Positions 3,799 to 64,000 of a stretch of 64,000 nucleotides of DNA are shown here, in pieces (position 1 is the stretch's first letter; each line of letters begins with the position of its first letter). The position numbers and the translations under genes were made by a program. The stretch lies in sequence record NZ_CP019209.1; one strand, given 5' to 3'. Source of the stretch: a plasmid. Under the pieces are notes generated by a model. The model was not told the DNA's origin and made no database searches. It saw only the letters and a program-made list of their open reading frames with translations.

Positions 3799-3832
3799 AC
3801 TCTCCCTTCCCGTCTAATAGCTGTTATATCTA

Positions 3833-5170: not shown

Positions 5171-5249
5171 GTCCTTTTACAATTCATATACTTATTTTAT
5201 CGTATATATTTAAAAAGGAAAAGGACACTGTTTAAATAGTAAACGATTC

Positions 5250-7601: not shown

Positions 7602-7690
7602 AAAAATCCCCTGCTTTCTTGCCGAACATACGTTCGTTTATGTGTTGATTATATTTTATATTTTAGTGTTTGTCAACAACTAAAAATAAT

Positions 7691-9204: not shown

Positions 9205-9247
9205 AAAATAATAAAACAGCACAAAGAAATCTCTTTGTGCTGTTTTA

Positions 9248-9938: not shown

Positions 9939-9951
9939 AATGAATCTTCCT

Positions 9952-10413: not shown

Positions 10414-10460
10414 CTCGCTTTCTTATTAAATTTATAATATATATCTACGATAAGATAATT

Positions 10461-11269: not shown

Positions 11270-11316
11270 ATAATAAGTCTCTATTTTTCAATAACTATTG
11301 CAAAATTATATCTTAA

Positions 11317-13298: not shown

Positions 13299-13434
13299 TT
13301 AAGCCTATACACTAGATATTATACAGCATATTATGGCTCTATAATATCTAGTGTTGGTGACACCTTCTGTTGCCAATACTTTTTCTTTTTTCTAATAAAT
13401 GCAAACAGACACCTTGAAATCCTTTAGAATAAAG

Positions 13435-14934: not shown

Positions 14935-16468
14935 AAAAATTATCGTACTTGATTACGGTAGTCAGTATAACCAACTGATCACTCGCCGTATTCGTGAGTT
15001 CGGTGTTTTCTCAGAGTTGATGAGCCACCGCATTACCGCAGAAGAAGTAAAGGCAATGAACCCTAAAGGAATCATCCTTTCTGGCGGACCAAACAGTGTT
15101 TATGATGAGAAGGCCTTTGGTATTGATGAAAAGATTTTTGATTTGGGGATCCCAGTTTTAGGAATCTGTTACGGTATGCAGTTGATTACTTATAAATTAG
15201 GCGGAAAAGTTAAACCAGCCAAAAACCGTGAATACGGAAAAGCAGAATTGGAAATCACTTCTGCAGAAGCGGCCCTTTTCCAAAACACTCCTGAAAAACA
15301 AACCGTTTGGATGAGTCATGGTGACCTAGTTACCCAAGCACCGACTGATTTCGATGTCGTTGCTACCAGCAAAGATTGCCCCATCGCATCGATCCAAAAT
15401 GCAGAACGCAAAATGTACGGAATCCAATTCCATGCAGAAGTTCGCCATTCCGAATATGGAAATGACTTGTTGCGCCATTTTACACTAGATGTCTGCCAAT
15501 GTACTGGTGACTGGACAATGGATAACTTCATCGACATGGAGATCGCAAAAATTCGTGAACAAGTCGGTGACAAAAAAGTTTTATTAGGCCTTTCAGGCGG
15601 AGTAGATTCCTCTGTTGTTGGTGTTCTTTTACAAAAAGCGATCGGCGATCAATTAACATGTATCTTCGTTGATCACGTATTGTTGCGTAAAGGTGAAGCA
15701 GAACAAGTTATGGAAAGTCTTGGCGGAAAATTTGGCTTGAACATTATAAAAGTCGATGCCAAAGAACGTTTCTTATCAAAACTTGCTGGCGTGTCTGATC
15801 CAGAAGAAAAACGTAAAATCATTGGAAATGAATTTGTATATGTCTTCGATGATGAAGCAACCAAACTTGCCGGTGAAGAAGGCGTTTCTTTCCTTGCACA
15901 AGGAACCCTTTATACCGATGTGATCGAATCAGGAACTGAAACTGCCCAAACCATCAAATCACATCACAATGTAGGTGGATTACCTGAAGACATGCAATTC
16001 AAGCTGATCGAGCCATTGAACACATTGTTCAAAGACGAAGTACGTGAATTAGGTACCCAATTAGGCATGCCTGACAGCATCGTTTGGCGCCAACCATTCC
16101 CTGGACCAGGCTTAGGTATTCGTGTCCTTGGTGAATTGACAGAAGAAAAATTAGAAATCGTCCGTGAATCAGACGCTATCTTGCGCGAAGAAATCGCCAA
16201 TGCCGGTTTAGATCGCGACATCTGGCAATACTTCACCGTCCTACCAGGCATTCGCTCTGTTGGGGTTATGGGAGATGGCCGTACGTATGACTACACTGTA
16301 GGTATCCGTGCTGTCACTTCTATTGACGGCATGACCGCTGACTTTGCCCGTATCCCTTGGGAAGTCTTGCAAAAAATCAGTGTCCGTATCGTAAATGAAG
16401 TCGCACACGTTAACCGTATCGTGTATGATATTACCAGCAAACCACCTGCAACAGTGGAGTGGGAATAA
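14855..16468 (+). CDS. guaA: GMP synthase (glutamine-hydrolysing); native N-terminal codons replaced by an in-frame extension encoded by the ISL3 end
   Basis: GATase motif GICYGMQL and HGD, plus the ATP-PPase motif SGGVDSSV. GuaA homology begins ~14935 ([14 protein letters not shown]); the first ~27 codons of the ORF lie inside the IS right end. Confidence 0.9.
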
Positions 16469-16553
16469 GACGTAAATATAATATGGATGGGGAATGCCGA
16501 TAAATCAACGTTTTTCAACGTAAGCGCCCCATAGAACAGTACCTTACTAACAA

Positions 16554-19179: not shown

Positions 19180-20112
19180 TTAGCGATTGATCGAGCGGCT
19201 AACGCAGTTGATGGTATGTCGCATTCCTCTAATTGCAACCGAGGTTTCGAAAATATTTTCTGCTGGTGCCAATCCCCCGTATCCAGCATCTCCAATATGT
19301 TGTAAATCAACACCACAACTTTTATTCATAATGGCTAATTGCCGCAATGTTTCTGGTCGGGCACTTTCCTGACTAGTACCGATTGCAGACATCGTTAACA
19401 AATCATATTTTTTTGCCAACCGAACCGCTTCAATTAGGTCTTGCTCTAAAAAGCCTGGGATAGACCCTACTGAAGGAACTAGTAAAATATCTGCGCCTGC
19501 TTCCGCATAAGAAATAATCGCCTCTTTATTCACAACTGGCTCTTCTGAGCCGGCGCTATGCATTTTCCCAGCAATAATCAATCCCGAAAAATACTTTTTT
19601 GCCATTTTTACGGATTTAGTAATTTCTAAATTGGTTACTCCAGTGCCTGGATTACCGGTAAAGCAAATAAAATCGACTCCTAGTTCTTCTGCTTTTTGTA
19701 TCGTTTCAACAGAGCTTGCTCTTCCTTGGCTGATTTCTACTTTCTCACTCATCATATTTGTTTTAGGGGCAATGGGTTCTAAATTAATTCCCACAGGACG
19801 ACCGACTAGTTCTTTTAATTTAGGAATCGGGTTTTCAATCGTTTGCTGTAGATCAAAAACCTTCTCAATCGTCACATTTGGTAGTCCAAAAACTGCAGGA
19901 CGATAACAATCGAAACCATTTAAAAGAATCAAATCTGCACCAAATGCTGACGCAACTTCTGCATTCGTAATTTCTCCAGATTGTGGAAGAGTATTAGCAA
20001 CCGTTTCACAAACAATCACCCGTCCTTCACTCGCTTTGATGGATTGCTTCAACTCTTTTGACGTCATTTTCTTGACATCACTGTAGTTTGCACTAATTAA
20101 TCTCTTGACCAT
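19180..20112 (-). CDS. Hypothetical protein (310 aa), alternating beta/alpha pattern suggests a TIM-barrel sugar-phosphate enzyme; last gene of the hyl operon
   Basis: Full ORF co-directional with the glycoside hydrolases. I recognise no diagnostic motif. Confidence 0.45.
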   Translation of the reverse strand: MVKRLISANYSDVKKMTSKELKQSIKASEGRVIVCETVANTLPQSGEITNAEVASAFGADLILLNGFDCYRPAVFGLPNVTIEKVFDLQQTIENPIPKLKELVGRPVGINLEPIAPKTNMMSEKVEISQGRASSVETIQKAEELGVDFICFTGNPGTGVTNLEITKSVKMAKKYFSGLIIAGKMHSAGSEEPVVNKEAIISYAEAGADILLVPSVGSIPGFLEQDLIEAVRLAKKYDLLTMSAIGTSQESARPETLRQLAIMNKSCGVDLQHIGDAGYGGLAPAENIFETSVAIRGMRHTINCVSRSINR

Positions 20113-20151
20113 TTTGTTCTCCTTTTTCTTGCTTTTTATTTTTTAAGATAT

Positions 20152-24797
<4,646 letters not shown>

Positions 24798-24918
24798 TCA
24801 CTTCCTACTTTTTTTCTCTTCTTAATAAAAGAGTTAGTGGTAAGCTACTTATGAATAGAAAACGAACCACTTTCCCATTAGATGAGCAAGTGGTCCGTTC
24901 AACGGGAAGATTCCTTCG

Positions 24919-26883
24919 TTAATTGTAGCCTGACACCGAGCTTTGCCGATAATTAAAGCCAGAAATTTCAAGCGGCACTTGATATTGACAAAACGGTAAT
25001 CGTTCTTCCAAAAGCTCCTCTAGGGCATCTTGCCCCTGAAGATGATTTTTAATACGACGCGCAACGGTTTTCAGACGATGAGCTAATGCAGCATATCGTT
25101 GTTCTAATACTTCCCAACCATAGGTTTTGTATGTTTGATACCAAATTATTTCATGAATAGATGCCAATTCATTTACTCGATTGGCTAGTGCTTCACACCG
25201 ATTCGCTAATTCCATTAATCCTGCAAGGTCTTCTACCAGACAGCAGTGTTGTAAATAGATGCCTAGTTCTGCCTTTTGTGCTAAAATTTCAGCTAAAAGT
25301 ATATATCGTTGACGAATAGTTGTTAAAATTGGTTGTTTTGGATTCCAATTTTTATTCATATCTAATTTCTGAGCTAACTCATGATAATAAGTACCAATTG
25401 TTCTAGTGGCAATTTTGTTATGAGCGGCTACATGAAAGTCATATATACCAACTAACGGATCTTGCCAAAGTAGCAGTTTACTCACGGAAGCCATTTGTAA
25501 GTTGTTATTTGTAATGGTATCCACTTCATCGAAATATCGTAATTCGGACATTAATTGATAACTACCTGTTCCTAATAAACGATCGTAGATTTCCTCAAAA
25601 TCATTCCACTCTTCTTCAGAATAGACATAATCTGCTAATTTTAATGCCCCAATTAAGGAATGCCAATGCTCTGTTTCCTGCCCTTCATCTCCCCAAGTAG
25701 TTAACATCACAGAACGTACACCTTTATTTTTAGAAGCTTTTACAGCTGCAGAAACAATTGCTTCTGTTTTCCCATGATTCGGGGCTAGTCTCCCCCAGAT
25801 ATGGGCACCACTAGCTAAAACGTAATGATCAATGTCACAAAATTTCAAATGGTTATCAATTACTTTCTCATAGGAGGAAACTTCATCTGAACCATAGTCC
25901 CAATGAACATAGGTTAATCCTGCTGGTAATCCTTTAGCTGCTAATGCTTTGAGTTTAAAATCAGGATTGTAATACCTATCTTTACCGGTTTCATCTAATA
26001 GCTTATAAATGAAATCACTCCAAATCATTGGTTTCATCTTATATTTATCAACAATTGATAACACACGGTCCATATGTTGAATCATTAAAGTTGTCCGATC
26101 ACAATACCCATACAGGCTTAAATATCGTCCCAGACCTGCTTGATAGGCTTCATCCATTCCCAAATGAATACGCTCTGTCTGATACATTTCTTTGCAGGCA
26201 ATAATCATCTTTTCGATTGCCGCATAAACCTTTTCTTCACCGATCAGTAGAGTATTTTGATCATCCATCAGTTCTTGTTGAGCATACCACTTCAAAAATT
26301 GGGTCAAGTGAGCAAGGGTCTGGATCGATGGAACTACTTCTATGCCAAAACCAGAAGCAAATTCAACAATTTCATTCACTTCTTCTTTTGTATACGCTCC
26401 GCGAAGGTAACCAAAATATGGAAGGTCTTCTACTTCATAGGTATCTTCTGTGTAAATATACAATGTGTTGTACCCCATCAACGCTAAGTAAGAAATGAAT
26501 TTTTTTAGAGTCTCTTTATTCATCACGCCATTACGAGAAGCATCTAATGAATAACTGGTCTCAATGATCGAGGTTTCTTCAATGTATGGCATCTCTCCTC
26601 CTTGAGCTAAAAAACGTGGAAGGCAGATAAACAATCCTCGATACAGCAAGTCTTCATGTGAATAAGACAAGCAAATTCGTTGCTGCTCATTTTTAGTAAT
26701 CTTGATTTGTCGCACATTAGCCTTTGTGTCAGTAAAAATCAAGTCTATTTGTTCTTCATCTTTTTGTGTCAATGGAATCTCAAGTTGCTGGATAAAGGCT
26801 ATATTAGCTACTTGTTTATCAGTTAACTTCATAGAAAGAAATACTCCTTTTTGTGAAAAAATTAGTGCGATTGTATCTGACAA
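24919..26883 (-). CDS. GH20 beta-N-acetylhexosaminidase (654 aa ORF; start may be the internal MKLTDKQ)
   Basis: GH20 catalytic motif HLGMDEA (H-x-G-x-D-E) and a TIM-barrel pattern. Confidence 0.75.
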   Translation of the reverse strand: MSDTIALIFSQKGVFLSMKLTDKQVANIAFIQQLEIPLTQKDEEQIDLIFTDTKANVRQIKITKNEQQRICLSYSHEDLLYRGLFICLPRFLAQGGEMPYIEETSIIETSYSLDASRNGVMNKETLKKFISYLALMGYNTLYIYTEDTYEVEDLPYFGYLRGAYTKEEVNEIVEFASGFGIEVVPSIQTLAHLTQFLKWYAQQELMDDQNTLLIGEEKVYAAIEKMIIACKEMYQTERIHLGMDEAYQAGLGRYLSLYGYCDRTTLMIQHMDRVLSIVDKYKMKPMIWSDFIYKLLDETGKDRYYNPDFKLKALAAKGLPAGLTYVHWDYGSDEVSSYEKVIDNHLKFCDIDHYVLASGAHIWGRLAPNHGKTEAIVSAAVKASKNKGVRSVMLTTWGDEGQETEHWHSLIGALKLADYVYSEEEWNDFEEIYDRLLGTGSYQLMSELRYFDEVDTITNNNLQMASVSKLLLWQDPLVGIYDFHVAAHNKIATRTIGTYYHELAQKLDMNKNWNPKQPILTTIRQRYILLAEILAQKAELGIYLQHCCLVEDLAGLMELANRCEALANRVNELASIHEIIWYQTYKTYGWEVLEQRYAALAHRLKTVARRIKNHLQGQDALEELLEERLPFCQYQVPLEISGFNYRQSSVSGYN

Positions 26884-27473
26884 GGCAACTTTGCTAACGC
26901 TCTTTCAGTTAATTTACTAATCAATATTACCGTTACAGCTGTTCCGCCAAACAGAAAAATCACAGGCAAAATCATCAATATTCGGAAATAAATTCCAAGC
27001 ACCAAGCCTTGCATGACTACCGTTGGCAACATCGTTGCTGTGAAAAGCAAATAGTCAATCAGTCGGTCTCCCATCATCCACAACCCAAGACTTTTGATCA
27101 CGACCCAATTCAACATTGCAAAGACTAGGAACAGTGTAATTACCGATAATAATGTACTTAATAAATAAAACAATGGTGCGCTTTGCTGCCAACAAAGCCA
27201 GATCGTAGTAATATTGCCGGCCAACAACAAAGTTGCTGACCAGCAATATAGATTATATCTAACAAAATTTTTCTTATAGATTTTACTCATGAACTTCACA
27301 GACTCTTGCAAGCCATATTTTTTTCGATTCACAACGCCAGCAATCAAAGCTATCGTAGCAGGGAAAAAACCTAAAATTCCAAATCCTAAACAAATTAGTA
27401 TAAAATAAGTAAAGTTTAGTAACAACAATTGAAAAACCCAATTAAATCCTTTGGTCCATTTGTTTTCGTTCAT
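26862..27473 (-). CDS. YesL-like (DUF624) membrane protein
   Basis: 203 aa with ~6 TM; this family typically accompanies LplABC/YesOPQ-type sugar ABC loci. Confidence 0.6.
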   Translation of the reverse strand: MNENKWTKGFNWVFQLLLLNFTYFILICLGFGILGFFPATIALIAGVVNRKKYGLQESVKFMSKIYKKNFVRYNLYCWSATLLLAGNITTIWLCWQQSAPLFYLLSTLLSVITLFLVFAMLNWVVIKSLGLWMMGDRLIDYLLFTATMLPTVVMQGLVLGIYFRILMILPVIFLFGGTAVTVILISKLTERALAKLPCQIQSH

Positions 27474-27523
27474 TTGAATCCCCCCACTAACTGCTTAGTC
27501 TATTCTTTTCATTTAGTAAAAAA

Positions 27524-28996
27524 TTATTTGTTAGATTTTCGCCATTCATCGTATTGTTCTTGAGCAGATGCCTGAATTTTATCCAATCCAGCTTTTTCTA
27601 GTTTTTCTAACAACTCTGGTACATATTGTTCAGGGTCAACTGTTCCCGAGCTTAAAAGTACTTCATATTGTGACACGATATTTTGTACACTTGCAATTTC
27701 TGTTCGAAAATCAGAAGCGTCAAAAGAGAAACCTAAAATAGGAGACATCGGTGCTTCATTTTGAAACTTTTTACTTTCTTCTTCTAGTTTTTTACTTTCT
27801 TCTGTAATCGGTGAAGTTTTTGAAACTAGATAAGTATTTACCAATGCCCAAGCGCCTTGATAATAATCATCAGAGTTTGTTAAAGTAATCGAACCATCTT
27901 CATTGCGATCATAGTGTTTTCCTTCAATTCCATAAACCATTAAATCCGCTACTTCTTGATTGGTATTCACATAATTCAACAATTTCAAGGCTGCTTCCGG
28001 ATGTTTACTTGAAGCAGATACCGCATGCATTGCCACTCTTGCAAATCCAGTCGTTTTAAAAGCTTTTCCAGCTGGTTTTAAAATTAATCCATGTCCCGCT
28101 AGAGCTTCTAATTTTTTTTGTGCTAATGGTTGATAACCACTTGAGTTACGACCTAAAAACCAGTTTTTACTATCAATTCGAAATGGATCTGTCGTAACAG
28201 TGGCTGCATCTTTCAAAATATATCCTTTTTTATAAAACTCATGCATAGCCTTCAAATAAGTCATCATTTCTGGAGTCTCATAAGTATTAACAACTGTTTG
28301 TGTATCGCCTTCAAATGCAACCGCTAGCGGTACACCACCACCGATAATATTGTCATAAGGAATACAGACACTGGTACGGGTCATACCGATTGGCGTAATA
28401 TTCGTATCAGTATTTTTTTCTGCAAACTTTTCTAATACTGGAGCCAATGTTTCTACACCTTCAACATTCTCTACATCCAATTGGTATTGATCTACCAAAT
28501 CTTTATTAAAGGTCCAATATTCCGTTGTGGCAATATCGTTATTGACTGGCAATCCATAAGTTTCGCCATTAATTGCCCCACCTTCAATAAATCCTTCATT
28601 CAATTCAGCTGCATAATCTTTCAACTCTTTATCCAAATGATCGTTGAGACTAATGAAAGCACCTTTGTTCCCATAATTCACATAATCTGTGCCATTGACG
28701 AAACAAATATCATATTCTTCTCCTGAATTGATCATCACACCAAGCTTTTGCTGATAATCCCCGTCCGGAATCAGCCGCATATCCAACTCTACATTGATTT
28801 CTTCCTTTAATTTTTCGTTGACTTTTGTCATGACCTCATCAAAATCTTTGGGTTCTTCTCCAACCTGATACCAAGTAACTTTTGTGGTTCCTGTTTCATT
28901 ATTTGCTTCGCCATTACTGCTACCACAAGCACCTAATAGGCCAAGGGTTAGTACAGAAGCACCACCAATCAAATATTTCTGCATGTTCTTTTTCAT
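27524..28996 (-). CDS. Extracellular solute-binding lipoprotein of a carbohydrate ABC transporter (LplA/YtcQ-like, 490 aa)
   Basis: Lipoprotein signal LGLLGACGSS and a large family-1 SBP. Confidence 0.8.
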   Translation of the reverse strand: MKKNMQKYLIGGASVLTLGLLGACGSSNGEANNETGTTKVTWYQVGEEPKDFDEVMTKVNEKLKEEINVELDMRLIPDGDYQQKLGVMINSGEEYDICFVNGTDYVNYGNKGAFISLNDHLDKELKDYAAELNEGFIEGGAINGETYGLPVNNDIATTEYWTFNKDLVDQYQLDVENVEGVETLAPVLEKFAEKNTDTNITPIGMTRTSVCIPYDNIIGGGVPLAVAFEGDTQTVVNTYETPEMMTYLKAMHEFYKKGYILKDAATVTTDPFRIDSKNWFLGRNSSGYQPLAQKKLEALAGHGLILKPAGKAFKTTGFARVAMHAVSASSKHPEAALKLLNYVNTNQEVADLMVYGIEGKHYDRNEDGSITLTNSDDYYQGAWALVNTYLVSKTSPITEESKKLEEESKKFQNEAPMSPILGFSFDASDFRTEIASVQNIVSQYEVLLSSGTVDPEQYVPELLEKLEKAGLDKIQASAQEQYDEWRKSNK

Positions 28997-29019
28997 CTTT
29001 TAACATCTCCTATTCTTTT

Positions 29020-29931
29020 TTATTCTTTCACTCCACCGATCGTCAATCCTTGAACAAAGTATTTTTGGAAGAACGGATAAACAATTGCAATCGGTAAAGT
29101 AGCTACTACGACCATTGCCATTCGTGTTGATTCTTGAGGAAGGCTATTTTGAATTGCTTGTTGCTGCGCTAATGTAATGTCATTATTATTTGCTAAGAAT
29201 TCCATTGAATTTTGAATCTTCATTAACAAATATTGCAATGGAATCAATTTGTTGGTGTCAATATACAGCAATGCGTTGAACCAGTCATTCCAATAACCTA
29301 AGCTTGAAAATAAACCTATTGTTGCAACCCCTGGGATCGCTAAAGGCAAAACGATTTGGAAAAAAACTCGAAACTCACTACAGCCATCCATTTTAGCGGA
29401 TTCGATAATCGATTCTGGAATCGACTTCTTAAAGAATGTCCTTAAAATAATGACATTGTATGGGCTAAAAGCAAGAGGTAGAATCAAAGCCCAAATTGTA
29501 TTTTTTAAGCCAAGCATCTTCGTCATCACTAAGTAAGAAGGAACCATCCCTCCCGCAAATAACATGGTAAAAAAAAGATAAAAAGTAAAGAACTTCCGGT
29601 AAGGGAAAGAGGCTCTTGATAAAACATAAGCATAGGTTCCCGTCATAAAAACAGTAATCAACGTTCCAATCACTGTAATCATAATTGTAACGCCTAATGA
29701 CCGAAGTAACTGTCCGCCATCTTGTATTAAGTATTGATATGCATCAGTGCTCCATTGAGCCGGCAATAATTCGTAACCGTTGAGTTGTAATGCTTTTTCA
29801 TCTGTTAATGAAATGACGATTACGAAAATAAAGGGAAAAATACAGCTAAGAGTAAATAAGATTAGTAATATTGTGAAAAACCGTTCGACTGGCAGCGAAA
29901 AGTACATCTGCCGTTTTAATTTTGATATCAT
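29020..29931 (-). CDS. Carbohydrate ABC transporter permease (LplC/YtcP-like)
   Basis: 6-TM MalG-like permease with an EAA loop region. Confidence 0.8.
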   Translation of the reverse strand: MISKLKRQMYFSLPVERFFTILLILFTLSCIFPFIFVIVISLTDEKALQLNGYELLPAQWSTDAYQYLIQDGGQLLRSLGVTIMITVIGTLITVFMTGTYAYVLSRASFPYRKFFTFYLFFTMLFAGGMVPSYLVMTKMLGLKNTIWALILPLAFSPYNVIILRTFFKKSIPESIIESAKMDGCSEFRVFFQIVLPLAIPGVATIGLFSSLGYWNDWFNALLYIDTNKLIPLQYLLMKIQNSMEFLANNNDITLAQQQAIQNSLPQESTRMAMVVVATLPIAIVYPFFQKYFVQGLTIGGVKE

Positions 29932-29942
29932 TTTGATTCCTC

Positions 29943-30881
29943 CTAAAATAGTGCTGAACTAGGATCTAACTTGTTGACTATCTTATTAGTAATCAAAATC
30001 AAGACAAAGCCAACTGATGACTGATATAATCCCGCTGCCGTAGACATTCCGATATCTCCGCTATTCATTAATCCACGGTAGACATAAGTATCTAATACAT
30101 TCGTCACATCATAAAGAGCCCCCGAATTTCTTGGCAATTGATAAAACAATCCAAAATCAGCTCGAAAAATACTACCAACAGACAAAATCAACATAATGAC
30201 AATAATCGATCTTAAATGTGGCAAGACTACATTCCTTATCTGTTGCCATTTACTGGCACCATCAACTAAAGCAGCTTCATAATAACTAGTATCGATCCCC
30301 ATAATTGACGCGTAATAAATGATGGATCCATAACCTACGCCTTTCCATAAACTCGTAAAAACAATAATAAAAGGCCAGTACTTCGGTTCACTATACCAAT
30401 TTATGGGTTCCACACCAAAATTGCTTAGTAAAATATTAATTAATCCTTTATCCGTACTCAAAAATGCGTAAACAAAGTAACTGATGACTACCCATGATAA
30501 AAAATTAGGAAAAATCATAAATGTCTGCATCTTTTTCAATAACCGTTTGTTCGCCATTTGGCTCAGAATGATTGCTAATGACACTGTACAAAAAGTACTT
30601 AGCAAAATACCTACAACGTTATAAACAACCGTATTGCGAGTAATGATCCAAGCATCTTGCGAAGCAAAGAGATATTTGAAATTTTCCCAGCCAACCCAAG
30701 GACTGTTGAACAAACTTGTAAAGAATCCCCTTGATGAAATTCTGAAATCTTTAAAAGCGATTACAACTCCAAACATTGGTATATAGCAAAATATAAATAA
30801 CCATAACGCACCTGGTAAAAGCATAATAAACAATGCTCGGTTTTTTTTTAGATTTCCTAATAACCCTTTCTTTAGCTTCAT
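29943..30881 (-). CDS. Carbohydrate ABC transporter permease (LplB-like)
   Basis: 6-TM MalF-like permease; first gene of the minus-strand transporter operon. Confidence 0.8.
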   Translation of the reverse strand: MKLKKGLLGNLKKNRALFIMLLPGALWLFIFCYIPMFGVVIAFKDFRISSRGFFTSLFNSPWVGWENFKYLFASQDAWIITRNTVVYNVVGILLSTFCTVSLAIILSQMANKRLLKKMQTFMIFPNFLSWVVISYFVYAFLSTDKGLINILLSNFGVEPINWYSEPKYWPFIIVFTSLWKGVGYGSIIYYASIMGIDTSYYEAALVDGASKWQQIRNVVLPHLRSIIVIMLILSVGSIFRADFGLFYQLPRNSGALYDVTNVLDTYVYRGLMNSGDIGMSTAAGLYQSSVGFVLILITNKIVNKLDPSSALF

Positions 30882-55602: not shown

Positions 55603-56460
55603 TTACTCCACCTCCGCATACCAATTCTCGTGTTCTTCCAATTCTTTCAAAATACTGATAAATAATTCGTGGCTTTTGCGATCCCATTGTTTTAAGAGAC
55701 CTTTCTTTGTCTTCTCCATCGTAATACCTGATCCGTCGTATCGTTTTAAGCGCGCATTTTTGAGTACAACATTTTTAATCAAATGTTCCCCATAAATCTC
55801 TTGGGCTTGTTTATACATTTCCTGATCTACTGCGTCACCGCTTTCCAACATGAAAGGAATAACACCAGCAACATATAAATTTGTATCAAATTCTTTCACA
55901 AAAAAGTCCATATACTCAAGATATTGCATCGCATTTCTCATCGATTTTACTTGGGTCTGTAAGACGACGATTGCCCAATCCGCAATGTACATCGCGGATT
56001 TACTATATACAGAAATAGAAGGTGGGACATCTAAATAGATGACGTCAAACTCATCAAATAATGGTTCTAGCTTTTCTTTCATATATTTGAATTGGGATAA
56101 TGAATCATTATATTGGTCTTTGATCCAATCATCATACATTTCAAAGGACATGTCTGCTGGAAGTATATAGAGGTTATTGATTACTTTATAGACAGCCTCT
56201 TTAGGTGGAAGATTGTTTATCAACACGTCAGTCACAGTATTTTCGTAAACAATCGGTTCACCTTCTCCGCCTCCTTCTTCGTTAGTGAAGTTCATATGCG
56301 TTAAGTTCATCACATCAGAAGTATTTCCTTGCATATCCAAGTCAATTATCAAGGTTCTTTTTCCTTCATTAACTGCTGATTCAAACCCTAACATTTGCGC
56401 GCACGTACTTTTACCTACGCCACCTTTAAAATTACCGATTACATATTTCTTCGCTACCAC
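55603..56460 (-). CDS. parA: ParA/Soj-family partition ATPase (285 aa)
   Basis: Deviant Walker A KGGVGKST and ParA motifs. Confidence 0.85.
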   Translation of the reverse strand: MVAKKYVIGNFKGGVGKSTCAQMLGFESAVNEGKRTLIIDLDMQGNTSDVMNLTHMNFTNEEGGGEGEPIVYENTVTDVLINNLPPKEAVYKVINNLYILPADMSFEMYDDWIKDQYNDSLSQFKYMKEKLEPLFDEFDVIYLDVPPSISVYSKSAMYIADWAIVVLQTQVKSMRNAMQYLEYMDFFVKEFDTNLYVAGVIPFMLESGDAVDQEMYKQAQEIYGEHLIKNVVLKNARLKRYDGSGITMEKTKKGLLKQWDRKSHELFISILKELEEHENWYAEVE

Positions 56461-56514
56461 GTTCCTACCTCTTTTCTTTTAGCAATATTCATTTGATACT
56501 ATTATAACATATTT

Positions 56515-56590
56515 ATTTTTAGTTACTACCAAAAAAAAGATATATATGTACTACCTTATAATTAATAAGTAAAAGGTAGTACATAAATAA
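56515..56590. promoter_or_regulatory. Centromere/operator-like repeats upstream of parA (AGTTACTACC; inverted repeat ATGTACTACCTT-N16-AAGGTAGTACAT)
   Basis: 12-bp perfect inverted repeat at 56546-56583 plus an extra GTAACTACC-type copy at 56521. Confidence 0.55.
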
Positions 56591-56702
56591 GGAAAAGCTG
56601 AAATATATTGATTTATAGCTTTCCTCAAAGTAATGACGTTATTTAATTTATCGAGAAGCAGAGAATACTCGCGACTTTAGTCATGTAGACGAATCAGATT
56701 TT

Positions 56703-56727
56703 CGATAAAAAAGAAGCCGTCCTTCTT
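56703..56727 (-). terminator. Rho-independent terminator downstream of the RelE gene
   Basis: AAGAAG-ccgtc-CTTCTT followed on the minus strand by TTTTTT. Confidence 0.55.
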
Positions 56728-56745
56728 AAGAACGACAACAAATCA

Positions 56746-57032
56746 CTAGATTAATTTTTTCAACTGTTCATAAAAGTTTTCATGCGTTCCACATAACAAT
56801 ACTGGAATAACCTTGTTTTCTATAATCTCGTAAGCTACTCTATATGTTGTGCCCGCATATTTGAACCCACTAGACCAAATACCTGATAAATCCCCAGTTT
56901 TTTGTTCACCCTTATATGGATCAATCGCAATTTCATCATAAATTAAATTCAAAAATTTTTCTTTCAATGGCTTCTCTTTTAGCTTTTTAAATACTTAATG
57001 ACATGTTTTGAAGGAACGATTTCATAAGCCAA
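56746..57032 (-). pseudogene. RelE/StbE-family toxin gene disrupted by a 1-nt frameshift in a homopolymer (T5 at 56985-56989)
   Basis: Frame B encodes (L)AYEIVPSKHVIKYLKS*. The body is the 73-aa ORF ...GDLSGIWSSGFKYAGTTYRVAYEIIENKVIPVLLCGTHE. Adding one A restores a ~92-aa RelE collinear with E. coli RelE. Confidence 0.6.
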
Positions 57033-57351
57033 TTTCTGTTGCCAACTCCTCTTTAGTCATTACTTTAGAATTAGTAAGTGTATCTTCAGCAATATCTCTA
57101 AAGGAAGAATGCATTTTGTTTTTTCTATTCTTAAATTCTACAAGAATCTCATCTTTATCGTAGCCTTCTGCAATTATATCAGACAAAATATCTTCGCTAA
57201 AATCATAAAATTCTTTTTGTGGTTCAACAAATTCATAAAGAATACCATTCTCTACCAACTTTGCTTCAACTTCGACTCCATTAGGAACATTAAAATCTTT
57301 AGGTACTGTCAACATGATTGAATTGCCTTGTTTTCTTGTTTTTGTAATCAT
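57022..57351 (-). CDS. AbrB/MazE-fold antitoxin (109 aa)
   Basis: N-terminal swapped-hairpin motif ITKTRKQGNSIMLTVPKDF; overlaps the toxin's 5' end. Confidence 0.55.
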   Translation of the reverse strand: MITKTRKQGNSIMLTVPKDFNVPNGVEVEAKLVENGILYEFVEPQKEFYDFSEDILSDIIAEGYDKDEILVEFKNRKNKMHSSFRDIAEDTLTNSKVMTKEELATEIGL

Positions 57352-57427: not shown

Positions 57428-57700
57428 TTACTGTGACTCGTAATGCGTCCTTGCTGAATAAATTTCAACCACGTGTTCATCTTCATCTACCTTATAAACA
57501 ACCCGGTGTTGTCTATTCAATCTTCTAGAATACCTACCTTCATGTGTAGGTTTTAACTTCTCAAATGATTGGGTAGGGAGATAGGGATCTTCCTTTAAAG
57601 TCTGAATAACCTTCTCAAATTGAGGTTTCAAATTAGACTGTTTGATTTTCTTTAAATCAGCTTTAGCCGAGTTTTTAATCATCACAGAATAGTTATTCAT
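57428..57700 (-). CDS. YoeB/Txe-family toxin (90 aa)
   Basis: PTHEGRYSRRLNRQHRVVYKVDEDEHVVEIYSARTHY matches the YoeB/Txe C-terminal catalytic region. Confidence 0.7.
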   Translation of the reverse strand: MNNYSVMIKNSAKADLKKIKQSNLKPQFEKVIQTLKEDPYLPTQSFEKLKPTHEGRYSRRLNRQHRVVYKVDEDEHVVEIYSARTHYESQ

Positions 57701-57963
57701 TATAAGTTATCCCAATCAATTTCATCAACATTAGTAAATCCACTATCATCTTTTTCTCGCTTACGAACAACACCCAAAGTGCCTATTTGCTCAAGTAATA
57801 GCGTTTCTTTGATTGCTTTCCAATCATCCAAACCAATAAGCACCGCATTATTTTCACTGCGCTCACTAATGATTTCAATTTCCGTATGATTCTCATTTAC
57901 ATCTTTCAACAACTTATAAAAATTTTTCCGTGCTGAGCTAGGATTTAAGACTGTTTTTGCCAT
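57700..57963 (-). CDS. Phd/YefM/Axe-family antitoxin (87 aa)
   Basis: MAKTVLNPSSARKNFYKLLKDVNENHTEIEIISERSENNAVLIGLDDWKAIKETL; 1-nt overlap with the toxin. Confidence 0.7.
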   Translation of the reverse strand: MAKTVLNPSSARKNFYKLLKDVNENHTEIEIISERSENNAVLIGLDDWKAIKETLLLEQIGTLGVVRKREKDDSGFTNVDEIDWDNL

Positions 57964-57997
57964 ATCTACTCCCCCTCTAATTTATATCTCCATTCTA

Positions 57998-58017
57998 ACG
58001 TACTTAATTAAGTACGT
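57998..58017. promoter_or_regulatory. 20-bp perfect palindrome ACGTACTTAATTAAGTACGT, a likely operator of the axe/txe-like operon
   Basis: Located 35 nt upstream of the antitoxin start codon. Confidence 0.5.
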
Positions 58018-58085
58018 AAATTCGATTGTTTTGTTTAAATTGGAGTACCAAAACAGCATTGTAAAGTGTTATCCGTTTCCTTTAT

Positions 58086-59125
58086 ACCCGTGGTGCTAGT
58101 TAATTTTTTCCTAGAGGAAAATGTCTAAACATGTTGGTAAATCAACAAAAAAACGCATAGAGTAGTCTCAAAACTCCCAAGAAATGAGGACTACATATGC
58201 GTTCATCAAAATATACTGAACATTATACAGATACTTTTATAACATTCAAGGAAATTATGAGAACTGTTTCTAACATATACCACAATTGTGTACCAGATAA
58301 GATTAAAAACCGAAGAAATACTGATCAACTGAAGTAACGCGATACAGTGATTATTGCTTGTGTTATATGGGGCATAATTAATGGCTATACTAGCCAAAGA
58401 GCCACGTATAGAGCGGTTTGTTCCGTCTTATTTCCTAATGGTGACTTTCCTAGTAGGAGTCGATTCACTCGCTTAAGTTCAAACTTAGCTTACACTATCA
58501 AGATTATTCGATACTTTTTCATCAAGAAGCTCACCAAAGGTGAACTAGTCGGAATTATAGATAGTTTTCCTAGTCCATTATGTAAACCAGTTAGAAATAG
58601 ACAAGCAAAACTATTGAATCAAATAGCCAAAGTTGGCTATAACTCAACAAAAAAATCTTATTTTTATGGTCTTAAAATTCATATGATCGTTACTAAGACT
58701 GGCTTTCCGATTACTTACTCAATCACGAATCCAGGTGTCCATGACGTGAAAGTGTTAGAGACTTTATCGGAAGAAGCGAATCTTCCCAATATCCTAGGGG
58801 ACAAAGGATATATTAGCCATAAAATCCATGAAAAGCTTGCCCTTATGGGCATTACTATATCCGTTCCGCCACGTAAAAACATGGATAAATCAGAAAAACT
58901 AGACCACAGCTTACTTGGAAAACAAAGAAAAACAGTTGAGACTGTTTTTTCTTCCTTAGAAAAATTAGGTTGTCAAAATTTCAACTCACGTTCTGTTAAA
59001 GGGCTAGAGAGTAGATTTGAAAGCATATTACTGGCTTACAGTGTTCTATTAAGTCGAGCACAACGACGTTTTGAAGGAACTTTGAGATATTCTTTAGGAT
59101 ATTAAAATTAACTAGCACCACGGGT
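58086..59125 (+). mobile_element. IS982-family IS, copy 1 (1040 bp); its transposase carries an in-frame TAA
   Basis: 18-bp IRs ACCCGTGGTGCTAGTTAA at both ends. The tnp frame 58257..59105 is interrupted by TAA at 58335-58337. Confidence 0.8.
58257..59105 (+). pseudogene. IS982-family transposase with a premature in-frame stop after codon 26
   Basis: MRTVSNIYHNCVPDKIKNRRNTDQLK-TAA-RDTVIIACVIWG..., then an intact DDE region. The track ORF starts at GTG 58347. Confidence 0.65.
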
Positions 59126-60283
59126 TACTCTAGTATTTTTTTTATTTGTCGCAAAAAATGTTACAAATAGGATCACAATAAATATTCCTGCGAATACAAA
59201 AAATGGAGCAGTCAAATTTGTACTTCTTGTTAGAAATTGTGCTAATTGCATAGCAATAGGAGCTATAAAATTACCAATATTACAGCCAATAAAAATCAAT
59301 GAAGTAGCAAAATTAATTGTATTCTTTGTAGTGACTTTATCTAAGTTACTAAAGATAAATGGGAAGCACCATGATCCTGTTATACTTGATAAAAATAAAC
59401 CCGTTAGCAGGAACGTCATATTACCGTTTGACACAGCAATTAACAAATTTGAAATTATAAAGAATATAATTCCCAAGTATAGGGTTCCTTTTCCTATCCA
59501 CTTATTTATTGGTCCAAACATAAATCCTGCTAGTATTCCTAAGATAGGCATTAGAGCTAAATAGTTACTAGCATTAAAGTTTACCCCTTTAATTTCAGTT
59601 GCAATTGATGCAAATCGTACAGAAATAGCAATACTATTCATTACGAGTAAGATTGCAAATAGAACTAGGGCAAAAACCATTGGATTCATCTTTTCTTTTA
59701 CATGATTTTCAGGTATGTCACTATTTTCATCTCTAATTTCAGGAACTTTTAGCGCGAATAAGAGAGCTACAGGAAACGCAATTGCATAGACTAAAAACGA
59801 AGCCGTCCAATTAATGTTCACTAAAACTCCAGCAAGAAAAATAAGGATTGTCTGACCTAAAGCTTCCATTGAATTTCTAATACCTAATAGCGTTGCTCTA
59901 GTATTGCCAGAGTATAAAGAGCTGATATATGTCACAGCCAATGAATTATATACTCCTAAACCGGCACCTAATATTACTCGACTAATAAGAACGGTTTGGA
60001 AGGTAGCTGTAAATACTGGAATAATTCCTCCTATACCAGCTAATAATAAACCTAAAATTATTGTCTTTTTCATTCCTATTCTTTTGGCAAAGTAACTAGA
60101 TAATAAGATAAACAAAATAACAGTTATACTTGGTGCAGTTCCTAAAAGTTCACTTTGACTTTGTGATATCCCCAAAGACTGTTTCATTTGTGGAATAACA
60201 CCATTAATTGCTTGAGAGCTTGTTAACATTAGTGAAATACTTAAGATTGCTCCTTTTTGAAGTAAGCTTTTTTGGTTATTCAT
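59108..60283 (-). CDS. MFS transporter (~391 aa from MNNQKS); its 3' end overlaps the IS982 IR
   Basis: ~12 predicted TM. The last 6 codons plus the stop (VTRGAS*) are encoded by the IS982 inverted repeat. Confidence 0.7.
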   Translation of the reverse strand: MNNQKSLLQKGAILSISLMLTSSQAINGVIPQMKQSLGISQSQSELLGTAPSITVILFILLSSYFAKRIGMKKTIILGLLLAGIGGIIPVFTATFQTVLISRVILGAGLGVYNSLAVTYISSLYSGNTRATLLGIRNSMEALGQTILIFLAGVLVNINWTASFLVYAIAFPVALLFALKVPEIRDENSDIPENHVKEKMNPMVFALVLFAILLVMNSIAISVRFASIATEIKGVNFNASNYLALMPILGILAGFMFGPINKWIGKGTLYLGIIFFIISNLLIAVSNGNMTFLLTGLFLSSITGSWCFPFIFSNLDKVTTKNTINFATSLIFIGCNIGNFIAPIAMQLAQFLTRSTNLTAPFFVFAGIFIVILFVTFFATNKKNTRVTRGAS

Positions 60284-60285
60284 CT

Positions 60286-62535
60286 CTACTTTTCCTCCTG
60301 TGTTATAACCCAAATCTTGGAATCAAAATCAAATGTTTCTGGGCGTCGATTCTGATCATTTATTTGTCCACTAGATGCATCTGAACAGACTAGTCCTGCT
60401 CTCATCAATTCCATTCCAGATCGCAAACTATTTTGTCCTACATTATAAAGTCCGTCATTATCTAACCCTTTTAATTTCAGTCGGCGGTAAGGAGCATTTA
60501 CCTCATTTAATGTTTTATAATGAGCAACAATAGCCGTTTTCTTATCATGACTAACAACCATCCACGCGGTTTGATTATCATCATCGAATGGTGATAATAG
60601 TCTATAAAAAGTACCATTATGAATTATGGTTCTATATTTTTTATAAAAGGCAATTTGTTCTTTTACAATCCTCAAATCGCCTTCACTTAATTCATTTAAG
60701 TCAAGCTCATATCCAAATGCACCAAAAAAAGCTACATTTCCTCTAGTTTTTATAGGTGTTATACGGTTTGTTTGATGATTTGGAACAATTGATACATGAG
60801 CACCAATAGACGAAAGAGGATACAGCATACTAGTTCCATATTGAATTTTTAACCTTTCAATTGCATCTGAATCATCACTAGCCCAAGCTTGAGGTGCATA
60901 GTGAAGCATTCCAGGATCAAAGCGCCCACCACCTGATGAACAAGACTCAAATAGTATGTTAGGATATTTTGTTATAAGTTTTTCATATAAGCGATATACG
61001 CCTAGTACATATCTGTGGAATACTTCTCCTTGTTGATCTGCTGACAAGTGACTGTCAAATACATCAGTCAATGGACGATTCATATCCCACTTAATGTAAT
61101 CTAAGTTTGATTCATCAATGATTTTACACATTTGATCGAAAATATTTTCAACAACCTCATCTAACCCAAAATTTAATACATATTGGTTCCTACCATGATT
61201 AGGTTTTCGATTAGGTGTAGAAATAATCCAATTCGGATGTGTGCGATATAACTCACTATCCTTATTCACCATTTCAGGTTCAAACCATAAACCAAATTTC
61301 ATACCAAAACTACGAATTTTTTCTGAAAGGCTGCCGATTCCTCTAGGTAGTCTTTTAGGATTTACATGCCAATCTCCTAATCCTGCACAATCGTTTTCTC
61401 TTTCTCCAAACCAGCCATCATCTAATACAAATAATTCAATACCAACATCAAATGCTTTTTTAGCAATATTTACCAACTTTTCTTCGTCAAAATCAAAATA
61501 TGTTGCTTCCCAATTATTAATTAAGACAGGACGGTCTTTTTCTCGCCACTTACCACGAGCTAAGCGTTTTCTAAATAGTTGATGAAAAGTTTGACTCATG
61601 GCATTTAAACCCTTACTTGAATAAACCAGAATCGCTTCTGGTGCTGTAAATATTTCTCCTGGATTGAGTTTCCAATTAAATCCAAATGGATTGATGCCAA
61701 CTTGTAGTCTAGTAACATCCCATGTATCTACTTCTGCTTGAATTAAGAAGTTTCCTGAGTAAACTAGTGCTGCACCAATAGCTTCTCCTTGATTTTCATC
61801 AGTATTTTTTCTTTTTAAAGTAACAAATGGGTTATGCTGATGGCTTGAAATACCTCGAGTAGATTCGATTGATTGAATTCCTTGTTGTAAAGTACGCGAC
61901 TTAATAGTTCTTTCTCTACCCCAAGCACCAGATAATTGTTGCCATTCATAATTTGCATCGGGTAAATCCAATGATAAACTGCTAATATTCTCGATTATTT
62001 GAATATCTTTTCCTTTATTCATAACTCGCGCGCTACGAGTAATAACAGGATAATCTCTATAAATTGTATATAATAATTCTACTTGAACATTTGTAACTGA
62101 ATCTAAAATATAAACTTTCAATGTTTTGCTTTCATCATTATTATCAACATAGGTAGCAGGTAAACCTTCTAGTTTAGGTTTTCCTTCTTCCACTTCGTAC
62201 CCTTGATAGACAAAATCTGATAAGCGAGAGCCATTTTTCTGTAGTAATGAAATAGCAGGATGTCTAAAATCTGTTGTACCATATTCAGGAAATTCTTGTT
62301 TTAAGTGCTCTAACGAATATAGCAAATCGTTTTCATTTCTATAGGTTGTCATAGGCCGATGATGCATCTCAATTAGATGACTATAGTCATTATCTGGTAA
62401 GTTCTCACCATAATATAAATGCAATAATTTACCATCTTCCGATATCTTAAAAATGTAACTTATCTCCTGATTAAACAAATGAAATTGTTGGTTTTCTGAT
62501 CGATAAATAATATTCATTTCATTATCCTTATACAT
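60286..62535 (-). CDS. GH36 alpha-galactosidase (749-aa ORF)
   Basis: GH36 motifs KWDMNR, the CSSGGGR nucleophile region, and YGLWFEPEMV. Confidence 0.85.
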   Translation of the reverse strand: MYKDNEMNIIYRSENQQFHLFNQEISYIFKISEDGKLLHLYYGENLPDNDYSHLIEMHHRPMTTYRNENDLLYSLEHLKQEFPEYGTTDFRHPAISLLQKNGSRLSDFVYQGYEVEEGKPKLEGLPATYVDNNDESKTLKVYILDSVTNVQVELLYTIYRDYPVITRSARVMNKGKDIQIIENISSLSLDLPDANYEWQQLSGAWGRERTIKSRTLQQGIQSIESTRGISSHQHNPFVTLKRKNTDENQGEAIGAALVYSGNFLIQAEVDTWDVTRLQVGINPFGFNWKLNPGEIFTAPEAILVYSSKGLNAMSQTFHQLFRKRLARGKWREKDRPVLINNWEATYFDFDEEKLVNIAKKAFDVGIELFVLDDGWFGERENDCAGLGDWHVNPKRLPRGIGSLSEKIRSFGMKFGLWFEPEMVNKDSELYRTHPNWIISTPNRKPNHGRNQYVLNFGLDEVVENIFDQMCKIIDESNLDYIKWDMNRPLTDVFDSHLSADQQGEVFHRYVLGVYRLYEKLITKYPNILFESCSSGGGRFDPGMLHYAPQAWASDDSDAIERLKIQYGTSMLYPLSSIGAHVSIVPNHQTNRITPIKTRGNVAFFGAFGYELDLNELSEGDLRIVKEQIAFYKKYRTIIHNGTFYRLLSPFDDDNQTAWMVVSHDKKTAIVAHYKTLNEVNAPYRRLKLKGLDNDGLYNVGQNSLRSGMELMRAGLVCSDASSGQINDQNRRPETFDFDSKIWVITQEEK

Positions 62536-62631
62536 AAGCTCTCCTCCGTTTCTTTATTGCATTATAAAAAACGCTCACATAAATAGTAAGCGTTTAAAGT
62601 AACGAATATTTATCAAAATCAAATGTTTAGT

Positions 62632-63492
62632 TTATTCACCATTAATGATTCCTAGACCTAATCTACGTTTTCGATATACTCCCGGTGAAACACCATTTGC
62701 TTTCTTAAAGGCTTTAGAAAAAGATTGTACTGTTGAGAATCCTATCTTGTCACTGATTTGCTGGATTGAATATTCAGTTGATGATAACAGATCGTTTGCA
62801 ATAGAAATTTTGATTTCACTAATATACTCTTTTATTGATATTCCCATATCATTCTTAAACAATCGTGATAAATAATTTTCGTGTATCGATAGACTGACAG
62901 CAATATCTTTAACAGATAATTTTTGATACGCATTCTCACGTATTATTTCAATTGTTTGACGAACAAAAGGATTCATCTTTTTAGTAATTATCCCTTCGTT
63001 CAGATAACTAGCTGAATTTAAGAGGAGTTCTAAAAATTTATAAACTTGTTTTTGTCTGGACAATTCACTGACTAGATTGTCCTGATCATACGATAAAGTT
63101 TCAAAAATTAATCCTTTAAATGAATTTAAATTTTCGACTTTAAAGGTAAGATGATTCTTTCCAACACCAATTTCTTTTAGATAGTATTCTACAAGATTGC
63201 CACTTAAACCCAACCATACATATGACCACGGATTTTTTTCATCTGCTTGATAAAAAGTAGATACTCCTGGTGGGATAACAAATCCTTGGCCTTTCTTCAG
63301 AAAATATTTTTGATCATTAATTGAATAATAGCCTTCACCTTCTAGCACTATGTGTATTAAGTATTGTTCTCGAATAGCTGGTCCAAAACTATGTCTAGGT
63401 TCTGTTTTTGAATACCCACAAAAATTAAAGTAACAATCTTTCAGCTGAGTGTTAGGTTCTGTTACTAAATATATAGAATTTTCCATATCCAC
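62632..63492 (-). CDS. AraC-family transcriptional regulator (286 aa), MsmR/RafR-like
   Basis: N-terminal cupin-like sugar-binding domain and C-terminal double HTH (AraC signature region). Confidence 0.85.
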   Translation of the reverse strand: MDMENSIYLVTEPNTQLKDCYFNFCGYSKTEPRHSFGPAIREQYLIHIVLEGEGYYSINDQKYFLKKGQGFVIPPGVSTFYQADEKNPWSYVWLGLSGNLVEYYLKEIGVGKNHLTFKVENLNSFKGLIFETLSYDQDNLVSELSRQKQVYKFLELLLNSASYLNEGIITKKMNPFVRQTIEIIRENAYQKLSVKDIAVSLSIHENYLSRLFKNDMGISIKEYISEIKISIANDLLSSTEYSIQQISDKIGFSTVQSFSKAFKKANGVSPGVYRKRRLGLGIINGE

Positions 63493-63547
63493 CCTCCTAT
63501 GTTAGATTTGGATAATTTTTGTTTTATTATGTTTATATTATTACATA

Positions 63548-64000
63548 ACCCGTGGTGCTAGTTAATTTTAATATCCTAAAGAATATCTCAAAGTTCCTTC
63601 AAAACGTCGTTGTGCTCGACTTAATAGAACACTGTAAGCCAGTAATATGCTTTCAAATCTACTCTCTAGCCCTTTAACAGAACGTGAGTTGAAATTTTGA
63701 CAACCTAATTTTTCTAAGGAAGAAAAAACAGTCTCAACTGTTTTTCTTTGTTTTCCAAGTAAGCTGTGGTCTAGTTTTTCTGATTTATCCATGTTTTTAC
63801 GTGGCGGAACGGATATAGTAATGCCCTTAAGGGCAAGCTTTTCATGGATTTTATGGCTAATATATCCTTTGTCCCCTAGGATATTGGGAAGATTCGCTTC
63901 TTCCGATAAAGTCTCTAACACTTTCACGTCATGGACACCTGGATTCGTGATTGAGTAAGTAATCGGAAAGCCAGTCTTAGTAACGATCATATGAATTTTA
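63548..64000 (-). mobile_element. IS982-family IS, copy 2 (partial, runs off the window), inverted relative to copy 1
   Basis: IR ACCCGTGGTGCTAGTTAA at 63548. The 140-aa C-terminal Tnp fragment is nearly identical to copy 1 (K/M difference). Confidence 0.8.

Follow-up and report, generated by a model that had tools for sequence, protein, structure and literature searches.

An ISEfm1-bracketed composite transposon with a predicted alpha-galactoside module on pLG1-type plasmids of Enterococcus faecium

We investigated a 64,000-nucleotide stretch of plasmid DNA (record NZ_CP019209.1; hereafter, the window), in which positions 58086 to 64000 hold two copies of the insertion sequence (IS) ISEfm1 and, between them, genes for a major facilitator superfamily (MFS) permease, a GH36 alpha-galactosidase and an AraC-family regulator. 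This arrangement is probably best explained as a composite transposon of about 6.5 kb, ISEfm1-MFS-GH36-araC-ISEfm1, carrying an alpha-galactoside module, which entered a pLG1-type (RepA_N) megaplasmid of Enterococcus faecium once, in one piece, and was later disseminated along with the plasmid family. Otherwise the element is an ordinary composite transposon with defective transposases; it occupies a single site in a widespread plasmid family, and public records already contain annotations of its genes.

Structure of the unit and evidence for insertion as a block

The first ISEfm1 copy (58086..59125, plus strand, 1,040 bp) is bounded by perfect 22-nt terminal inverted repeats (ACCCGTGGTGCTAGTTAATTTT) at 58086-58107 and 59104-59125, a sequence that is matched three times in the window, against no matches expected by chance. 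The second copy (63548..64000, minus strand) is inverted relative to the first and is cut by the end of the window, with 587 bp lying beyond it. The portion inside the window (approximately 455 nt) matches copy 1 throughout, and the complete second copy, as read in identical plasmids, differs from copy 1 at 3 of 1,040 positions (99.7% identity). The element is named "IS982-like element ISEfm1" in AP031256.1, and its transposase matches the NCBIfam model NF033520 (IS982 transposase, E = 5e-75) as well as DDE_Tnp_1. Between the two copies we identified exactly three intact open reading frames (ORFs), all on the minus strand. Thus, the first-pass annotation, which had been made from the sequence alone and had proposed two inverted IS982 copies enclosing exactly three genes (AraC, GH36 and MFS), was right both in the position of the copies, now identified as ISEfm1, and in the gene content.

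An 8-bp target-site duplication surrounds the whole unit. Its left copy, TCCTTTAT, lies at 58078..58085 and adjoins ISEfm1 copy 1, and its right copy follows directly after copy 2, outside the window (at 14503-14510 in the corresponding locus of NZ_CP023424.1). Neither ISEfm1 copy has a private flanking duplication. Equally, the duplication may be taken as 7 bp with an additional, ambiguous T, by which the 1,040 and 1,041-bp element lengths, and the 7 and 8-bp duplication lengths, agree; we could not find a solitary ISEfm1 from which to measure the duplication length among the 33 loci examined.

To obtain the empty site, we joined both outer flanks with one TCCTTTAT as an 800-nt query. The uninterrupted target was found in 61 plasmids from E. 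faecium, E. durans and E. hirae, with 99.1-99.7% identity to the query, and in E1774 plasmid 2 (NZ_LR135182.1) the sequenced empty site reads ...CCGTT TCCTTTAT TTTTATT..., with one repeat copy and no IS. The duplication around the whole unit, the empty sites with a single repeat, and the presence elsewhere of the same module free of ISEfm1 (described below) together indicate that the unit was inserted en bloc. The unit is a composite transposon, in which the same IS occurs twice, in inverted orientation, with 4,422 bp of cargo between the copies, a target-site duplication around the whole and a matching empty site. IS982 copies at these positions without the three genes, which had been named beforehand as the case that would speak against a transposable cassette, were not seen; the empty sites of related plasmids hold neither IS nor cargo.

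We consider it very improbable that the plasmid already possessed the three genes and that two ISEfm1 copies were inserted independently on either side of them, with no movement as a block. ISEfm1 is abundant in E. faecium (536 plasmids match), and without a duplication of its own on either copy, single insertions could not be dated; but in the empty-site plasmids, which have neither ISs nor cargo, the outer flanks are joined by a single TCCTTTAT, the duplication surrounds the entire unit rather than either IS, and the cargo is found elsewhere in unrelated contexts. Entry of the unit by homologous recombination into a resident solitary IS was also considered and rejected, since this route offers no resolution for inverted donor copies and no IS is present at the empty sites.

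More than 40 complete E. faecium plasmids of the pLG1/RepA_N type (rep_cluster_893; e.g. pTT39_p1, NZ_CP023424.1) match the segment 58086-64000 from end to end with 100% identity. Within PLSDB, 126 plasmids carry the cargo, and the same number cover at least 80% of the segment; the IS-MFS junction was found in 123, the araC-IS junction in 116 and the outer-left junction in 114, so that approximately 90% of carriers (114/126) have the unit at one site. Among indexed assemblies, more than 2,000 blocks contain the exact MFS protein, and each long contig inspected, some of them exceeding 1 Mb, had these same flanks.

In its architecture, the unit resembles Tn10, Tn5 and the enterococcal Tn5281/Tn1547 types, in which inverted copies of one IS likewise bracket a cargo, with a target-site duplication around the unit and an empty site available for comparison. 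It differs from these classical composite transposons in that its cargo is catabolic instead of conferring resistance, in that this copy has no functional transposase, and in that one insertion site is documented. It thereby provides an example of an IS982-family composite transposon with a catabolic trait; we found no Tn designation for an ISEfm1-flanked unit in the literature searched.

Origin of the cargo and the rebuilt end of the MFS gene

We identified the araC-GH36-MFS module without ISEfm1 flanks on many contigs, in contexts that included Inc18-like plasmids with omega-epsilon-zeta, and IS30 or IS6 neighbourhoods. In these loci the MFS protein has its native length of 389 amino acids (ending ...TRVITN). 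The IS-free module shares 99.1% nucleotide identity with the cargo in the window, and the homology ends exactly at both IS junctions. The IS-free loci additionally share approximately 315 bp upstream (containing a 53-amino-acid ORF and an TGATATAAT extended -10 element) and approximately 300 bp downstream (containing a terminator-like hairpin), neither of which is present in the window, indicating that ISEfm1 clipped the module tightly. Judging from these alignments, ISEfm1 took away the native upstream region of araC and the predicted terminator of the operon.

The most direct trace of this clipping is at the 3' end of the MFS gene, in which codons 387-391 (TRGAS) and the stop codon, following ...NTRV, come from the IS inverted repeat, so that three native codons (ITN) have been exchanged for five. 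Both the supply of the last codons by the inverted repeat and the rebuilding of this gene end by the IS, as suggested in the first-pass annotation, are therefore borne out. In Carnobacterium, Aerococcus, Jeotgalibaca, Streptococcus and Amphibacillus, the MFS homologues have 388-391 amino acids throughout, and the exchange affects residues beyond the final hydrophobic segment (approximately residues 361-379), indicating that the permease is not a truncated remnant. The comparison of lengths that had been proposed as a check thus revealed no longer homologues, and gives no support to an inactive remnant.

From these comparisons, the cargo would derive from a three-gene alpha-galactoside module conserved in the Lactobacillales and clipped by the ISEfm1 copies. 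One copy would have landed approximately 60 nt upstream of araC, with the loss of the native upstream region, and the other inside the MFS gene, 10 nt short of its end, with the replacement of three codons and the loss of the native terminator. A form with one IS was identified in pF39_1, where ISEfm1 is found only upstream of araC, the MFS gene retains a native end (...TRVMTNL) and the surrounding context is different. This form is a plausible intermediate.

A shared nonsense codon in the transposases, and variants among carriers

The transposase frame of ISEfm1 copy 1 (58197..59105, plus strand, 302 codons) is broken by an in-frame TAA at 58335-58337, corresponding to codon 47. This frame, of the DDE type, matches the IS982 models, but is interrupted in both copies: codon 47 is TAA in both copies of the window lineage, and CAA in intact copies. 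The in-frame TAA of copy 1 had been noticed previously and stands, but its placement after codon 26 does not, being a count from an internal ATG (58257) instead of from the start of the reference frame, and copy 2 has the TAA also. The ISEfm1 copies of the window are IS982 members by descent, with a transposase gene that, as read, is not functional. As the same nonsense codon is present in both transposases, the unit here is non-autonomous. Programmed read-through or frameshifting at the TAA was ruled out, since the sister copies differ by CAA versus TAA alone, a simple C-to-T nonsense change. The unit could move only with an intact ISEfm1 transposase supplied in trans. Recombination between the inverted IS copies probably still takes place, flipping the cargo.

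The ISfinder entry for ISEfm1 lists an element of 1,041 bp with a 302-amino-acid transposase, 22/22 inverted repeats and a 7-bp direct repeat, and its published roles consist of gene disruption (ddl, in vanD strains) (PMC7335449). The copies in the window are closely similar to this ISEfm1/IS19 of E. faecium, with 1,040 versus 1,041 bp, 22/22 inverted repeats, one DDE frame of 302 codons and a target duplication of 7-8 bp. They differ from it in the CAA-to-TAA change at codon 47 in both copies, and in bracketing a cargo, whereas the published copies disrupt genes.

We identified different states of the unit in different groups of carriers. In the E4457 and HY07 plasmids (NZ_LR135259.1 and NZ_CP032307.1), the unit is at the same site with CAA at codon 47 in both transposases, which are thus intact. 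In E. lactis and food strains, TAA is present in copy 1 only, and the occurrence of TAA in both copies in the clinical lineage to which the window belongs implies gene conversion between the IS copies. The cargo itself (59126-63547) has mosaic alleles: the E4457 and HY07 versions diverge by approximately 10% across araC and the beginning of the GH36 gene, but not at all in the remainder. In LC799795.1 (pJARB-OU2599; locus 2961-9462), the cargo runs in the opposite orientation with respect to the backbone and the outer flanks have traded places, as would be expected from homologous recombination between ISEfm1 copies in inverted orientation. Taken together, the records document the empty site, an intermediate with one IS, and forms of the unit with intact ISs, with decayed ISs and with an inverted cargo.

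We additionally found the composite at the same site, with a rep_cluster_893 backbone, in CP064340.1, a 240-kb plasmid deposited as Lactococcus lactis. This record may reflect genuine transfer between genera or, alternatively, an enterococcal sequence deposited under the wrong name.

Predicted function of the cargo genes

The AraC-family regulator (62632..63486, minus strand, 284 amino acids) contains an AraC_binding domain of the cupin type (E = 9e-24) and HTH_18 (E = 2e-19) and HTH_AraC matches, and thus has the N-terminal cupin-type ligand domain and C-terminal double helix-turn-helix of the AraC/XylS family. The GH36 alpha-galactosidase (60286..62535, minus strand, 749 amino acids) contains the Pfam Melibiase domain (E = 1.9e-161) together with GH36N and GH36C, with the N-terminal, catalytic and C-terminal domains all far above the Pfam cut-offs. 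It aligns end to end with tetrameric subgroup-I structures (PDB 8k1a, E = 3e-265; Geobacillus AgaA 4fnr, E = 2e-251; AgaA/AgaB, E ~1e-251), with D484 and D554 aligned with D478 and D548 of Geobacillus AgaA, and W342 and A361 with W336 and A355. In the structure papers on AgaA and LaMel36A, the Asp of the KWDMN motif (D478 in AgaA) is reported to be the nucleophile and that of the W-x-S-D motif (D548) the acid/base, and A355 is reportedly the residue that favours raffinose. The third gene encodes an MFS_1 permease (59108..60283, minus strand, 391 amino acids; Pfam MFS_1, E = 1.7e-44), a putative alpha-galactoside importer, with the GH36 stop codon lying 3 nt before its start codon.

The linkage of the GH36 and MFS genes, with AraC, is kept in six other taxa. 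These include E. asini, with 95-96% amino-acid identity, and Amphibacillus, with 60-75% identity; these two were the only loci retrieved by a contig scan with the MFS protein. In Aerococcus urinaeequi the GH36-MFS pair adjoins galT and an epimerase-family gene (likely galE), and the pair is also found in Jeotgalibaca ciconiae and, on the chromosome, in Streptococcus pasteurianus, the two genes overlapping in Streptococcus. The conservation of this coupling, and of AraC, across genera supports the permease as a dedicated alpha-galactoside importer.

We infer alpha-galactoside uptake and hydrolysis by the module, and likewise its specificity for raffinose or melibiose, from homology and synteny. 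On the same basis, the AraC-type regulator would sense an alpha-galactoside and activate the GH36-MFS bicistron, the permease would import melibiose or raffinose-family sugars, and the cytoplasmic GH36 enzyme would free galactose. We could not find galactose or sucrose catabolic genes in the unit, and downstream catabolism would rely on genes elsewhere in the genome. The description of the cassette as self-contained in the first-pass annotation thus holds for predicted sensing, uptake and hydrolysis, but does not extend to the catabolism of the products.

AraC-regulated GH36 operons are known from other Firmicutes, such as S. mutans msm (MsmR), S. pneumoniae raf (RafR) and L. plantarum melA-rafP. 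The unit shares with these an AraC-type cupin regulator, a subgroup-I GH36 enzyme and a dedicated transporter. In contrast, its transporter is an MFS_1 protein of approximately 390 amino acids rather than an ABC (MsmEFGK, RafEFG) or GPH (RafP, MelB) system, and it is without a sucrose phosphorylase or hydrolase.

Candidate regulatory signals

The araC-GH36 intergenic region (62536..62631, minus strand) contains a hairpin at 62595-62569, followed by TATAAT at 62566-62561 and GGAGG before the GH36 start. These are matches to consensus, and the spacer is a candidate araC terminator or operator with a regulated promoter. Upstream of araC, we identified a promoter-like site across the IS-cargo junction (63537..63565, minus strand), with a -35 hexamer, TTAACT, in the IS inverted repeat that is followed, after a spacer of 17 nt, by TG-n-AATAAT on the cargo side. 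The transposase frame of ISEfm1 copy 2 is co-directional with araC. It may be speculated that araC is driven from the IS end, through this hybrid promoter or by read-through from the transposase frame.

The araC-IS junction exists in two forms 5 nt apart, GGGT/TATGTAA in the window and GGGT/GATAT-TATGTAA in E4457, HY07 and pF39_1 (the slash marks the junction), and only the form in the window sets TTAACT exactly 17 nt from the TG-extended -10 element. The extra GATAT suggests either that ISEfm1 was inserted twice, independently and at positions 5 nt apart, or that 5 bp were lost by deletion.

Hybrid promoters have been documented for other members of the IS982 family, namely ISAba825 and ISAba4 (blaOXA) and IS1187 (cfiA) (PMC7335449). 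As in those cases, an IS982-family end at the 5' region of a gene here provides a -35-like hexamer at consensus spacing from a flanking -10 element, the present site differing in being known as a sequence match alone. A bolder proposal, which we regard as tentative and on balance doubtful, is that an IS-built hybrid promoter was perhaps favoured by selection as a means of activating a foreign alpha-galactoside operon in E. faecium, and that the GH36-linked MFS_1 proteins of approximately 390 amino acids in the Lactobacillales might constitute an uncharacterised permease family, distinct from GPH, LacY and ABC transporters.

Evidence for and against a mobile and functional module

Several observations weigh against a composite transposon that is both mobile and of use to its host. 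A functional transposase, as looked for in a composite transposon, is absent from the window lineage, where both copies are defective, one or two intact copies being kept in sister lineages. We could not find a second insertion site among further plasmids and the longest contigs with the exact MFS protein (some of more than 1 Mb), which showed the same flanks, an inversion or a local rearrangement; with no second site bearing a different duplication, the case for mobility rests on one event. The permease falls best into MFS_1 and not into the GPH or LacY carriers (MFS_2 scores 22.3 bits, below the cut-off of 27, and there is no LacY match), and matches NCBIfam models at the superfamily level only. 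In the promoter and terminator scan, the number of promoter-like sites was not above the shuffled expectation, so that these sites are to be taken as leads, with a suggestive position. Finally, araC is interrupted by ISEfa4 in approximately one-fifth of the carrier plasmids sampled, including NZ_CP020485.1 and NZ_LR135352.1.

For the transposon itself, the presence of the unit at one site in approximately 90% of carriers and the lack of a second site indicate that the unit transposed once in the past and was then disseminated by the plasmid. The expectation that the same IS982-flanked unit would be found in other replicons was thus realised in number, with more than 100 sequenced plasmids, but not in diversity, as these represent essentially one site in one plasmid family.

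For the permease, the GPH and LacY carriers are defined by MFS_2 or LacY_symp membership and are typically 420-640 amino acids long, compared to 389-391 for the proteins considered here. It might accordingly be an exporter or carry another solute, with the GH36 substrate entering by other systems or being a galactoside other than raffinose. Its best NCBIfam matches are drug and siderophore exporter and anion-symporter models, all far below the cut-offs, and no characterised MFS homologue, or close characterised relative, was found. We nevertheless consider this quite unlikely, given the tight coupling of the GH36 and MFS genes, 3 nt apart here, overlapping in Streptococcus, and associated with AraC across at least six genera, and given that the unit contains no other transporter. 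The unit points to a putative MFS_1 transporter with a probable specificity for alpha-galactosides.

For expression, it is unlikely, if somewhat less so, that the module, having lost the native araC promoter and operon terminator, is silent or only poorly expressed in hospital E. faecium and travels with the plasmid as a passenger that confers no sugar use. The missing native upstream region with its TGATATAAT extended -10 element would fit a passenger, as would the ISEfa4 insertions in a sizeable subset of plasmids, the fermentation of melibiose already by the E. faecium type strain, and the link of raffinose use to a different cluster, as far as that cluster has been described in citing papers. 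However, the three ORFs are intact and nearly invariant in more than 100 plasmids, the loss from the MFS protein is limited to tail residues, a promoter-like site spans the IS-cargo junction, and the unit is kept in food, animal and clinical lineages.

The ISEfa4 element (IS200/IS605 family, with tnpA and tnpB, approximately 1.9 kb) lies at approximately 63424/63425 (codon ~21 of araC), and GH36 and MFS remain intact in these plasmids. A disruption of this kind suggests that, in hospital lineages, regulated expression is under weak selection.

Relation to a published raffinose element

We compared the unit with the megaplasmid raffinose element of Zhang et al. 2011, which, as described in citing papers, has two alpha-galactosidases, AgaA and AgaB. 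A locus in NZ_CP027498.1 (172-14931) contains LacI regulators, ABC transporters, a GH4 alpha-galactosidase, GH36, GH13 and the sucrose phosphorylase gtfA, and fits this description. The GH36 protein of this type of cluster (WP_002290367.1) is 48% identical to that of the unit (WP_002314387.1). The record names of the two GH36 proteins and of the GH4 protein are generic only, and give no mapping to agaA/agaB. The NZ_CP027498.1-type cluster occurs on some pLG1-type plasmids, some of which have both alpha-galactoside loci.

That the unit is itself the published element is distinctly improbable. Both belong to the pLG1-type megaplasmid family, with the same enzyme class and alpha-galactoside catabolism (predicted, in the case of the unit). 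Against this identity, the unit contains one alpha-galactosidase, and its best-matching plasmid one GH36 only, whereas the published element is described with two such enzymes, and the cluster that fits it is located elsewhere, with a different GH36. The apparent counterpart cluster likewise has ABC transporters and gtfA as well as its two alpha-galactosidases, in contrast to the single GH36 and absence of gtfA here. With a two-alpha-galactosidase cluster elsewhere on pLG1-type plasmids, the present module appears to be separate from agaA/agaB, so far as the latter is known from its description. We found no account of an ISEfm1-flanked alpha-galactosidase unit in the literature searched.

This plasmid family typifies hospital-adapted E. 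faecium, and the unit adds a second alpha-galactoside locus to plasmid glycan-use genes thought to aid gut colonisation. Current concepts are left unchanged by its presence, and its use will be mainly in annotation and in the bookkeeping of plasmid evolution.

Plasmid surroundings

The other outer insertion point, just past the end of the window, lies 6 nt before the stop codon of a DUF5839-like ORF (14485-15420 in the NZ_CP023424.1 locus). The product of this ORF changes from 308 amino acids, ending ...NKNKGNG, at the empty site to 311 amino acids, ending ...NKNKG plus TRGAS, at the occupied site, gaining the same tail encoded by the inverted repeat as the MFS protein. The left insertion point of the composite is in the upstream region of a Phd/YefM-Txe/YoeB (axe-txe-like) toxin-antitoxin operon (57428-57963, minus strand), which starts 122 nt from the left end of the composite and is followed by an AbrB-like and RelE/ParE pair, and parA, at 55603-57351. 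An Rfam scan of 57900-64000 returned no match.

More distantly, the window is collinear with NZ_CP023424.1 from approximately 16.5 to 50 kb, with 99.99% identity, in a region that takes in a hyl(Efm)-type cluster. We located this cluster at approximately 19,180-30,880, with 99.99% identity to the annotated NZ_CP023424.1, confirming the previous suggestion that a hyl locus shares the plasmid segment with the sugar unit. It contains a GH84 "protein O-GlcNAcase", GH2, a GH20 beta-N-acetylhexosaminidase, a sugar ABC transporter and a two-component system; in the annotation, the gene for the solute-binding protein is entered as two coding sequences (693 and 783 nt), and it is possibly split. The first ~16 kb of the window are not collinear with NZ_CP023424.1 (window 12148-16518 corresponds to 124877-129247 of that record), and this lack of collinearity with the best match over positions 1-16,500 indicates that the source plasmid is arranged differently upstream of the hyl region.

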